Positions 4,076-4,604 of a stretch of DNA of 64,000 bases are shown in pieces; the stretch's first letter is position 1, and each line of letters starts with the position of its first letter. Source of the stretch: Clostridia bacterium. Lineage in GTDB: Bacteria; Bacillota; Clostridia; TANB77; CAG-508. The stretch is taken from contig DBGCHZ010000048.1 of NCBI GenBank assembly GCA_048355915.1, positions 2,200-66,199 on the forward strand, written 5' to 3'. A program made the position numbers and the translations under genes. The notes beneath the pieces were generated by a model that had not been told where the DNA came from, ran no database searches, and saw only the letters and a list, made by a program, of their open reading frames with translations.

Positions 4076-4104
4076 TTGACAAAATTAAATAATGTGTATA
4101 TAAT
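4076..4104 (+). promoter_or_regulatory. Consensus sigma-A promoter: TTGACA, 17-nt spacer, TATAAT.
   Basis: TTGACA is at 4076-4081 and TATAAT at 4099-4104, with exactly 17 nt between them. It faces a short transcription unit that ends at the 4153-4194 terminator. Confidence 0.55.
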
Positions 4105-4110
4105 ATAAAT

Positions 4111-4197
4111 AGGAAATGAAGAAACCACAAAGTGGTTTGCCAGTTATATGTTAAAAAAACACATTGAACCGCCAAGTTACAGATGTGTTTTTTTATT
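4111..4197 (+). ncRNA. Candidate ~85-nt sRNA. Putative type I antitoxin, convergent with the small toxin ORF.
   Basis: It is bounded by the perfect promoter upstream and the hairpin plus U-run terminator at 4153-4194. It contains no ORF. Its 3' part overlaps the 3' end of the minus-strand toxin transcript. Confidence 0.45.
4153..4194. terminator. Bidirectional intrinsic terminator.
   Basis: The stem is AAAAAAACACAT / ATGTGTTTTTTT with an 18-nt loop. Both strands carry a U-run. The toxin stop codon is 6 nt away on the minus side. Confidence 0.45.
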
Positions 4198-4199
4198 GT

Positions 4200-4322
4200 T
4201 TATTTTTGTTTGCTAATAATTACAACTATCGCTATAATCAAGGCAAACGCAATGATAGTTACTGATACTAAACCAGCAAAAAGTAATTTTATTATTAATA
4301 ATAATTCTTGTATTTCTATCAT
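4200..4322 (-). CDS. Small hydrophobic peptide of 40 aa: MIEIQELLLIIKLLFAGLVSVTIIAFALIIAIVVIISKQK. Candidate type I toxin.
   Basis: The ATG at 4322 is preceded by AAGAGGAGGUGAGGCGU. The SD lies inside a CCUCCU-loop-AGGAGG hairpin. The peptide is a single TM helix with a lysine tail. The stop codon at 4200 abuts the bidirectional terminator. It is missed by the six-frame track because it is under 60 aa and overlaps spurious ORFs. Confidence 0.55.
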   Translation of the reverse strand: MIEIQELLLIIKLLFAGLVSVTIIAFALIIAIVVIISKQK

Positions 4323-4604
4323 ACGCCTCACCTCCTCTTATGTAGGAGGCAAACCACATCTGTTTTTTCTCATTTCCTATGTTATTCAATATACTATATA
4401 TTTTTTCAAAAAACAAGTATTATAAATATTTTATTTTCAAAATTGTTAGTGTATAATACTTTTTTGTAGAGTAGTTGAAAATAGTTGATAATTAAATTAC
4501 CTTTAACTTTCAAATTACTGAATTCTTACTAAATTATAGCTAAAAAATCGCTTTGAATAAAAATATTTTATATCTAATTCAAAACGATTTTTTTATTTTA
4601 TTAA

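Follow-up and report, generated by a model that had tools for sequence, protein, structure and literature searches.

In a 64,000-nucleotide (nt) stretch of contig DBGCHZ010000048.1 from a Clostridia bacterium (the whole of which we call the window; G+C content 25%), a compact cassette of ~350 bp (4076-4416) combines a minus-strand open reading frame (ORF) for a 40-amino-acid (aa) membrane peptide with a convergent plus-strand RNA gene. The cassette probably represents a new family of type I toxin-antitoxin modules, with a layout resembling that of bsrG/SR4 from the Bacillus subtilis SPbeta prophage. Judged from its sequence, every computable hallmark of such an RNA-controlled module is present, including a predicted cis-encoded antisense RNA gene that overlaps the toxin mRNA; toxicity and expression are themselves predictions. 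Conservation as a unit, a coding signature, covariation in both the terminator and a long-range mRNA helix (P1), and a multi-copy, mobile distribution support the type I reading. An earlier note, written by a model from the letters of the window, had proposed a type I-like module at this position, and its interpretation is supported as far as computation can take it. Module counts below are mostly over 79 modules, and nucleotide conservation is over 86. The parts of the cassette in the window, with SD standing for the Shine-Dalgarno sequence and sRNA for small RNA, are as follows.

4388-4416, minus strand: toxin-side promoter, TTGTTT (4416-4411)-17 nt-TATATT (4393-4388), an 8/12 match, with the start predicted at ~4380.

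4323-4380, minus strand: 58-nt 5' leader, AUAGGAAAUGAGAAAAAACAGAUGUGGUUUGCCUCCUACAUAAGAGGAGGUGAGGCGU, with the predicted P1 5' strand (4380-4348), anti-SD CCUCCU (4349-4344) and SD AGGAGG (4336-4331).

4200-4322, minus strand: ORF of the 40-aa single-pass membrane peptide, stop codon 4202-4200; codons 22-24 are predicted to pair with the start codon.

4152-4195, both strands: hairpin 1 (A-tract, stem, U-tract), the putative sRNA terminator and an internal stem-loop or leaky terminator of the toxin mRNA.

4109-4141, minus strand: distal 3' element, GGCAAACCACUUUGUGGUUUCUUCAUUUCCUAU, the predicted P1 3' strand, complementary to leader 4380-4348 and including hairpin 2 (4138-4122).

4076-4104, plus strand: sRNA (antitoxin) promoter, TTGACA-17-TATAAT, a 12/12 match.

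4111-4199, plus strand: predicted antisense RNA of ~88-89 nt, consisting of a 5' hairpin (AAACCAC-AAA-GUGGUUU), a variable linker and terminator hairpin 1.

4021-4540, no strand: insertion/deletion unit that carries the module, missing in the collinear close relatives L092 and L093.

The 40-codon ORF lies where the earlier note had located it, running from ATG 4322 to TAA 4200, and its product, MIEIQELLLIIKLLFAGLVSVTIIAFALIIAIVVIISKQK, comprises an acidic N-terminus, a hydrophobic helix of ~30 residues and an SKQK tail (grand average of hydropathy, GRAVY, 1.98; mean Kyte-Doolittle hydropathy 3.0 over residues 7-36). By its pattern of variation, the ORF evolves as coding sequence. Across the 62 distinct peptides of the family the start, stop, SD and hydrophobicity are maintained; ORF lengths range from 111 to 132 nt and are a multiple of three in 79/79 modules, with indels exclusively in-frame; and codon-position entropies of 0.64/0.28/0.55 make position 2 the least variable (ratio of non-synonymous to synonymous rates, dN/dS, ~0.57). 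The same sequence is constrained by RNA structure: codons 21-24 (GUAACUAUCAUU, 4252-4262), a stretch that pairs with the start codon, show no variation at synonymous sites in 47 ORFs, and a helix internal to the ORF (GUUUGC/GCAAAC, 4205-4247) changes in a compensatory manner (GC in 59, AU in 16). The longer “proteins” found in databases are the leader read in-frame into the ORF (...IGNENKQMWFASYKEVRRM...), indicating that conservation of the leader is at the nucleotide level, its frame with respect to the ORF being variable. An 80-aa ORF on the plus strand (4183-4425) was rejected as a real gene, the opposite strand being open for at least 70 aa in just 35 of the 79 modules.

An exhaustive profile search of 1.84 billion protein representatives returned 139 clusters (counted at 50% identity) of 37-90 aa, all of them unnamed or hypothetical, and a search with the peptide returned 87 cluster representatives, likewise all unnamed and nearly all metagenomic. 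Neither a single member nor a set of 14 matched Pfam, NCBIfam or PADLOC, and Rfam gave sub-threshold noise only: its BsrG model scored 12 bits in the window against a gathering threshold of 55, with no match in seven homologous loci, while the S. pyogenes sRNA model Spy779816 reached 29.9 bits (gathering score 67, E = 0.18) at L010 575-661 and L011 448-534 (minus strand), a match limited to two loci and probably due to chance. The family hidden Markov model (HMM) scored 2.2 bits against BsrG (sequence from PMC4342826), a value equalled or exceeded by 201 of 1000 shuffles; it scored 1.0 bit against TxpA and 2.2 bits against Fst, with PepA1 and YonT no better than BsrG. The earlier claim that the peptide is unlike Fst, TxpA and BsrG is thus borne out at noise-level scores, and with no known toxin family matched, the suggestion that it may represent a new family was correct. 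On these comparisons the family is outside every named one, the Clostridioides difficile toxins being compared by description. Among Clostridia, type I systems are known almost exclusively from C. difficile, and a review of clostridial type I loci lists just the C. difficile families plus a few Fst- or TxpA-like matches (PMC6563280).

A hallmark described for type I loci is an occluded SD, hidden either by an anti-SD close to it or by a long-distance 5'-3' interaction (PMC6733600). Here the leader is conserved at more than 90% of nucleotides and places the SD 8 nt ahead of the AUG, in keeping with the favourable geometry first noted for it. The accompanying claim that a CCUCCU 7 nt upstream of the SD sequesters it agrees with the predicted fold of the 231-nt minus-strand RNA that ends at hairpin 1 (4380-4150; -57.8 kcal/mol, z = -5.0; the short form), in which anti-SD and SD make a 10-bp hairpin and the start region AUGAUAG pairs with codons 22-24 (CUAUCAU, 4258-4252). 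The AUG helix is paired in 79/79 modules, with A/G-U variation. Median unpaired probability of the SD over these modules is 0.005 in the short form, 0.15 in a read-through form and 0.008 when the 3' untranslated region (UTR) is blocked, and that of the AUG stays at 0.03-0.08 across all modelled states; on these models the ribosome-binding site of the primary toxin transcript is occluded in all 79 modules. In 71-73 of 79 modules, blocking the 3' UTR leaves the SD less accessible than it is in the closed long form. A strong SD switch driven by the sRNA was nevertheless rejected and such switching retained as a secondary mechanism, since the effect is consistent in direction but modest. Leaders fall into two length ranges, 52-63 and 78-82 nt, with differences that are not multiples of three; the longer ones form a subfamily (L050, L051, L052, L076, L079, L085, L175) with an extra hairpin, CACAG-N6-CUGUG, between anti-SD and SD and a different anti-SD, ACCAC, which pairs GUGGU beside the SD.

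When the transcript is read through to ~4104, the predicted fold (-88.3 kcal/mol, z = -8.7) has the leader and distal element in a long closing helix, P1. Its arms are a 33-nt inverted repeat (4109-4141 / 4348-4380), overlooked in the earlier note, which makes leader nt 1-33 complementary to the distal 3' element and places them in the same sense as sRNA nt 1-33. A fold-back between the mRNA ends had been proposed from a 9-mer near the 5' end, ACAGAUGUG, and its complement CACAUCUGU in the terminator region. That complementarity is real, and folding does predict both SD occlusion and 5'/3' pairing, but the 9-mer is a small part of the 33-nt repeat and is lost in L175, and the relevant helix joins the leader to the distal element rather than the 9-mer to the terminator alone. 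The 9-mer pairing of leader with hairpin 1 does co-vary in L033 and L172.

The predicted P1 pairing recurs across the family. The duplex energy of leader against distal element averages -40.5 kcal/mol in 79/79 modules (shuffled sequences, -12.5 +/- 3.1), and in divergent subfamilies cognate arms pair better than non-cognate ones (-32.8 vs -24.3 and -36.2 vs -25.3 kcal/mol). In chimeras of leader, GAAA and distal element, 89.1% of cells are paired, compared with at most 49% in any slid register, and 11 pairs show changes on both sides, a number reached by 0/500 shuffles. The most distant members examined, L172 (arms AGAAAGUAAGAA/UUCUUACUUUCU) and L175 (arms AGAAAAUGAAAG/CUUUCAUUUUCU), differ in sequence yet keep complementarity, and both fold with this closing helix (z = -6.4 and -7.4, respectively). 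RNAalifold returned little or no structure on gappy MAFFT alignments of either the sRNA or the P1 chimeras; the explicit sRNA and P1 structures were assessed by pair counting.

On the other strand, the promoter that had been called textbook is indeed a perfect match, one of two perfect TTGACA-17-TATAAT sites in the 64 kb, where 0.09 are expected. The sRNA promoter matches at least 11/12 positions in 74/79 modules, a score that 0.45% of random 52-nt windows reach. In 68/79 modules, 4 nt separate the end of its -10 box from ATAGG. The toxin-side promoter is sigma-70-like and consistently weaker (7-11/12 in homologues), with its -10 box 7 nt ahead of ATAGG in 42/79. The other perfect site in the window, at 42063-42091 on the minus strand, we record as a separate observation.

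The predicted sRNA (4111-4199), which folds into a 5' hairpin and a terminator (-20.5 kcal/mol, z = -3.0), matches the toxin 3' UTR with full complementarity, while nt 1-33 of the sRNA are homologous, in the same sense, to the toxin leader. Counted over the sRNA alignment, 89.1% of cells in the two hairpins pair, falling to at most 57% with slid partners, and seven stem pairs of terminator hairpin 1 change on both sides. The 13-nt arms of that hairpin (4152-4164/4183-4195) are 100% complementary, and an A-tract on one flank with a T-tract on the other makes it bidirectional in the window. The terminator common to both RNAs that was originally proposed therefore stands for the window, although across the family a U-tract follows hairpin 1 in 79/79 modules in the sRNA direction but in only 71/79 in the toxin direction. 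A profile of the sRNA finds exactly one match in the window and none in 80 empty-site loci. The transcript length of roughly 85 nt given in the earlier note is close to that predicted here, but the description of it as ORF-less needs qualifying: a 12-codon ATG ORF without an SD sits at its 5' end, missing in 17 modules and varying in frame elsewhere. Conserved micro-ORFs in the sRNA or leader were rejected on such grounds, being absent or frame-variable across the family. Separately, an AUG lies 6-8 nt from the predicted 5' end of both RNAs (AGGAAAUG) and opens short ORFs of varying length (leader 4373-4338, sRNA 4116-4154). Their peptides show no conservation, and some homologues have the leader ORF joined to the toxin ORF in a single frame.

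Over the whole cassette, the hairpin-1 loop (4165-4182) and the spacer (4142-4151) vary most, with identities of 0.61-0.63 against 0.82-0.85 elsewhere, and they differ in every same-genome paralogue pair, even where the ORFs are identical (L074_2441, L074_3559). Such variability would fit copy-specific recognition initiated through the loop, but relaxed constraint explains it equally well. Action of the sRNA 5' domain in trans on the toxin ribosome-binding region, as for SprA1AS, was rejected, since the duplex z of -1.5 does not rise above background.

More than 90 loci in related genomes carry the cassette as a unit, with similarity confined to the segment corresponding to window ~4010-4440 except in L060 and L001, which alone share the window flanks. 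A protein-based scan of one genome per species gave 94 matches, of which 80 were kept; all matched loci come from metagenome-assembled genomes of uncultured human-gut Clostridia, for example Clostridium sp. CAG:354 and CAG:567. Paralogous copies, which the earlier note had suggested looking for, occur in these genomes: at least 10 carry 2-4 copies, and L012, L021, L058, L059 and L074 contain tandem arrays. Within the 64-kb window, no paralogue was found by tblastn, blastn or the sRNA profile. Flanking genes vary widely (mini-RNase III/RsgA beside transfer-messenger RNA (tmRNA), thioredoxin, RelA/RecJ, Era/RecO, RuvAB, DsbD), and about a quarter of the modules, most tandem arrays included, have a tRNA or tmRNA gene no more than a few hundred nt away: tmRNA at L002 (763-1129), L004 and L005, tRNA-Leu at L006, tRNA-Met at L019, and, just upstream, tRNA-Gly and tRNA-Cys at L012, L021, L057, L058, L065, L074 and L075.

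Presence at a given site is also variable. Using the neighbouring gene for a CBS-domain protein as a probe, we found the full module at 0/80 orthologous loci. In the closest relatives, L092 and L093, both flanking genes show 93-96% nucleotide identity and the site is empty: the spacer between the pilin and CBS genes measures 165 nt, against 672 nt in the window, the difference spanning ~4021/4034-4540, with neither terminal inverted repeats nor a target duplication at the ends of the indel segment. In this intergenic region L135 holds a solo remnant (2288-2351; the toxin -10 box and leader nt 1-26), and its orientation, opposite to that of the window module, suggests an independent, decayed insertion. 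In other decayed copies the toxin is damaged while the sRNA is kept, either by loss of the start codon (L026, ATG to AGG) or by 5' truncation (L041, L087), which we count in favour of the type I reading.

The 33-nt inverted repeat, the multiple copies in variable contexts with an empty site, and the tRNA or tmRNA genes that adjoin about a quarter of the loci would also be found if the cassette were a non-coding repeat, resembling a miniature inverted-repeat transposable element (MITE) or a convergent sRNA pair, in which the 33-nt repeats are terminal and the 40-aa ORF is incidental. This we regard as very improbable: conserved sequence continues beyond the repeats and takes in both promoters, the ends of the indel fall 55-100 nt further out than the repeats, and in-frame indels together with retained start, stop, SD and hydrophobicity over 62 variants and 139 clusters are hard to reconcile with an incidental ORF. 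A MITE or other small non-autonomous transposon was rejected outright, the inverted repeat being internal to the unit and within the promoters, and terminal repeats and target duplication being absent from the indel ends.

Several observations weigh against a type I module working through P1. Every locus derives from metagenome bins, and the evidence consists of sequence and thermodynamic prediction. The predicted SD switch is small in absolute size (0.15 vs 0.008 median unpaired probability), and the wider ribosome-binding region barely shifts, being more open in the long form than in the blocked one in 46/79 modules. Covariation between the P1 arms could also come from gene conversion between the arms of the inverted repeat. 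Unlike many type I systems, the family showed no association with phages or plasmids in searches of viral contigs and of phage and plasmid collections by peptide and DNA, in which the peptide searches may be weakened by the low-complexity filter. In L082, an insertion sequence (IS) resembling IS3 (3130-4700; ORFs 3202-3729 and 3762-4583) lies inside hairpin 1 and separates the toxin ORF from sRNA-gene nt 1-73 (4623-4692), leaving the toxin ORF intact though the sRNA gene is cut. Finally, with a toxin-side U-tract in 71/79 modules, many toxin transcripts may end before the distal element and so lack P1, and no clean terminator is found 3' of that element.

The last of these points leads to a narrower account of the module, in which it is of type I but the toxin mRNA always ends at hairpin 1, the sRNA acts only via a terminator overlap of ~45 nt, and leader and distal element are complementary because the 5' part of the sRNA arose from a second copy, made by duplication, of the toxin promoter and leader. 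Consistent with this, the two 5' ends are homologous and both stand behind promoters at similar offsets. We consider it unlikely all the same: the eight modules without a toxin-side U-tract retain everything else, the arms have stayed complementary through many substitutions and indels in divergent subfamilies, for which common descent without selection for pairing is insufficient, and the same 5'-3' helix has been experimentally shown in bsrG (PMC3834814).

Another account shares the anatomy but not the function, the peptide being a harmless small membrane protein, such as a regulator or subunit of a membrane complex, that is tuned by a cis-antisense RNA without forming a toxin-antitoxin pair. 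Toxicity of the peptide is a prediction, SD and AUG are closed in every modelled state, L082 tolerates disruption of its sRNA gene, and the contexts are housekeeping regions of the chromosome rather than prophages, all of which would suit such a protein. Yet a free-standing cassette that is multi-copy, tandem and variably present beside unrelated genes is atypical of dedicated accessory subunits, occlusion of SD and AUG combined with a consensus-strength antisense and a weak sense promoter is the standard type I design (PMC6733600, PMC3834814), and decayed copies lose the toxin start and retain the sRNA; we judge this account improbable.

Under the preferred type I reading, the weak promoter would give rise to a toxin mRNA of ~230-280 nt encoding the 40-aa single-pass membrane peptide. 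This mRNA would be translationally quiet in two ways, through pairing of the SD by a CCUCC anti-SD and of the AUG by codons 22-24. In its read-through form, leader nt 1-33 would pair with the distal 3' element as P1, which would borrow a GCC beside the anti-SD and leave the SD in a 4-bp helix. From the opposite strand, the consensus promoter would supply an abundant RNA of ~88 nt, ending at hairpin 1 and complementary to the whole toxin 3' UTR. First contact between the two RNAs would be made via their complementary hairpin-1 loops and extend into a duplex, whose cleavage by a double-strand-specific RNase, presumably RNase III, would remove the mRNA; with the distal element occupied, the leader would also be expelled from P1, so that the SD hairpin would grow to 10 bp and translation would fall. 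Were the short-lived sRNA lost, the peptide would be made and would damage the membrane. In this scheme the transcript ends, the role of RNase III, the SD switch, translation and toxicity are what we infer from sequence.

We also advance, tentatively and as the less likely side of the matter, the idea that the antitoxin mimics the toxin leader, with sRNA and leader competing for the distal 3' element and the mRNA toggling between two states. In the first, P1 would be closed, the leader engaged and the anti-SD partly withdrawn; in the second, with sRNA bound, the leader would be expelled, the SD locked and the duplex marked for cleavage. As the leader copies the 3' arms of both 3' hairpins (CAGAUGUG, GUGGUUU), it could act as a co-transcriptional antiterminator that decides read-through at hairpin 1, and the hypervariable hairpin-1 loop would supply each paralogue with its own cognate sRNA. 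To our knowledge, no leader-mimicking sRNA 5' domain has been described for txpA/RatA, bsrE/SR5 or yonT/SR6.

For the proposed fold-back the earlier note had taken hok/fst-class toxin mRNAs as its model; the closest mechanistic precedent is instead bsrG/SR4, with its 3' overlap and 5'-3' helix P1. In bsrG mRNA, nt 1-35 pair with nt 232-262 and the SD lies in a 4-bp helix; binding of SR4 at the 3' part frees nt 1-33 and lengthens that helix from 4 to 8 bp; decay depends on RNase III, and the antitoxin promoter is the stronger (PMC3834814). The resemblance to the present cassette extends to a single-helix peptide of 38-40 aa with a Ser/Gln/Lys tail (PMC3834814), convergent genes with an antitoxin RNA complementary to the toxin 3' part, pairing of mRNA nt ~1-33/35 with a 3' segment (predicted here, experimentally mapped in bsrG), an SD helix of 4 bp predicted to lengthen once the antitoxin takes the P1 3' strand, and an antitoxin promoter that outranks that of the toxin. 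The differences are equally clear. Neither peptide nor RNA sequences are homologous; the sRNA is ~88 nt here and ~180 nt for SR4, and at its 5' end the sRNA of the cassette repeats the toxin leader in the same sense; the P1 3' strand lies beyond the shared hairpin, whereas in bsrG it lies ahead of a separate toxin terminator; and the module is outside a prophage. On the modelled structures, what is shared with bsrG/SR4 is a way of working, not family membership.

Other type I systems share single features. In txpA/RatA, bsrE/SR5 and yonT/SR6, too, convergent genes overlap at their 3' ends, and decay of the mRNA promoted by the sRNA is the main effect to be expected (PMC6563280, PMC3834814). 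Unlike the family here, these systems sit in prophage or skin elements, and they show no peptide homology to it (TxpA and YonT compared). In fst/RNAII of the par locus of pAD1, transcription likewise converges on a shared bidirectional terminator and the product is a small membrane peptide, but the par RNAs additionally pair via 5' direct repeats, whereas the 5' ends here form an inverted repeat and so are in the same sense rather than complementary; neither the Fst motif nor Pfam Fst_toxin was found in the family peptides. With hok/Sok and aapA/IsoA the cassette shares a long-distance 5'-3' helix and local anti-SD hairpins that keep the transcript inert (PMC6733600). In those two systems the mRNA is processed at its 3' end, its 5' region is the target of the antisense RNA, and the long helix hides the SD, while here the sRNA covers the 3' UTR and the predicted long helix slightly relieves SD pairing. 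The C. difficile modules (CD0956.2/RCd10, CD2517.1/RCd8 and others) are alike in their clostridial host, convergent overlapping genes, multiple copies per genome, hydrophobic N-terminal part and Lys-containing C-terminus (PMC6563280). Those toxins span 34-59 aa with Lys-rich tails, lie in prophages or beside CRISPR arrays and in many cases have sigma-B promoters; the modules described here are chromosomal, lie beside housekeeping or tRNA genes and were found only in uncultured low-GC gut Clostridia.

The 139 unnamed clusters would add a compact, self-contained type I family confined to those organisms, in which such small genes and sRNAs are invisible to annotation. That the RNA architecture of bsrG/SR4 recurs without sequence homology suggests that the design of a 5'-3' helix with a 3'-overlapping antitoxin is old or else has evolved convergently. 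With their compensatory changes, the ~80 natural variants form a ready mutational data set for the P1/antitoxin mechanism, and the small (~350 bp), modular cassette is a candidate counter-selection or RNA-device part for Clostridia.

Beyond the cassette, the window contains a hairpin with 17-nt arms at 4542-4593 (AAAAAATCGCTTTGAAT / ATTCAAAACGATTTTTT), which immediately follows the gene for the LPxTG pilin (4605-5870, minus strand). The hairpin is that gene's own, bidirectional-looking terminator, is kept in the empty-site relatives and marks one edge of the inserted segment. In the stretch 4605-6565, the pilin is of the Cna-B type and bears the sorting signal LPVTG; a sortase-like gene comes next (5930-6565), and a two-component system lies at 6963-9154.

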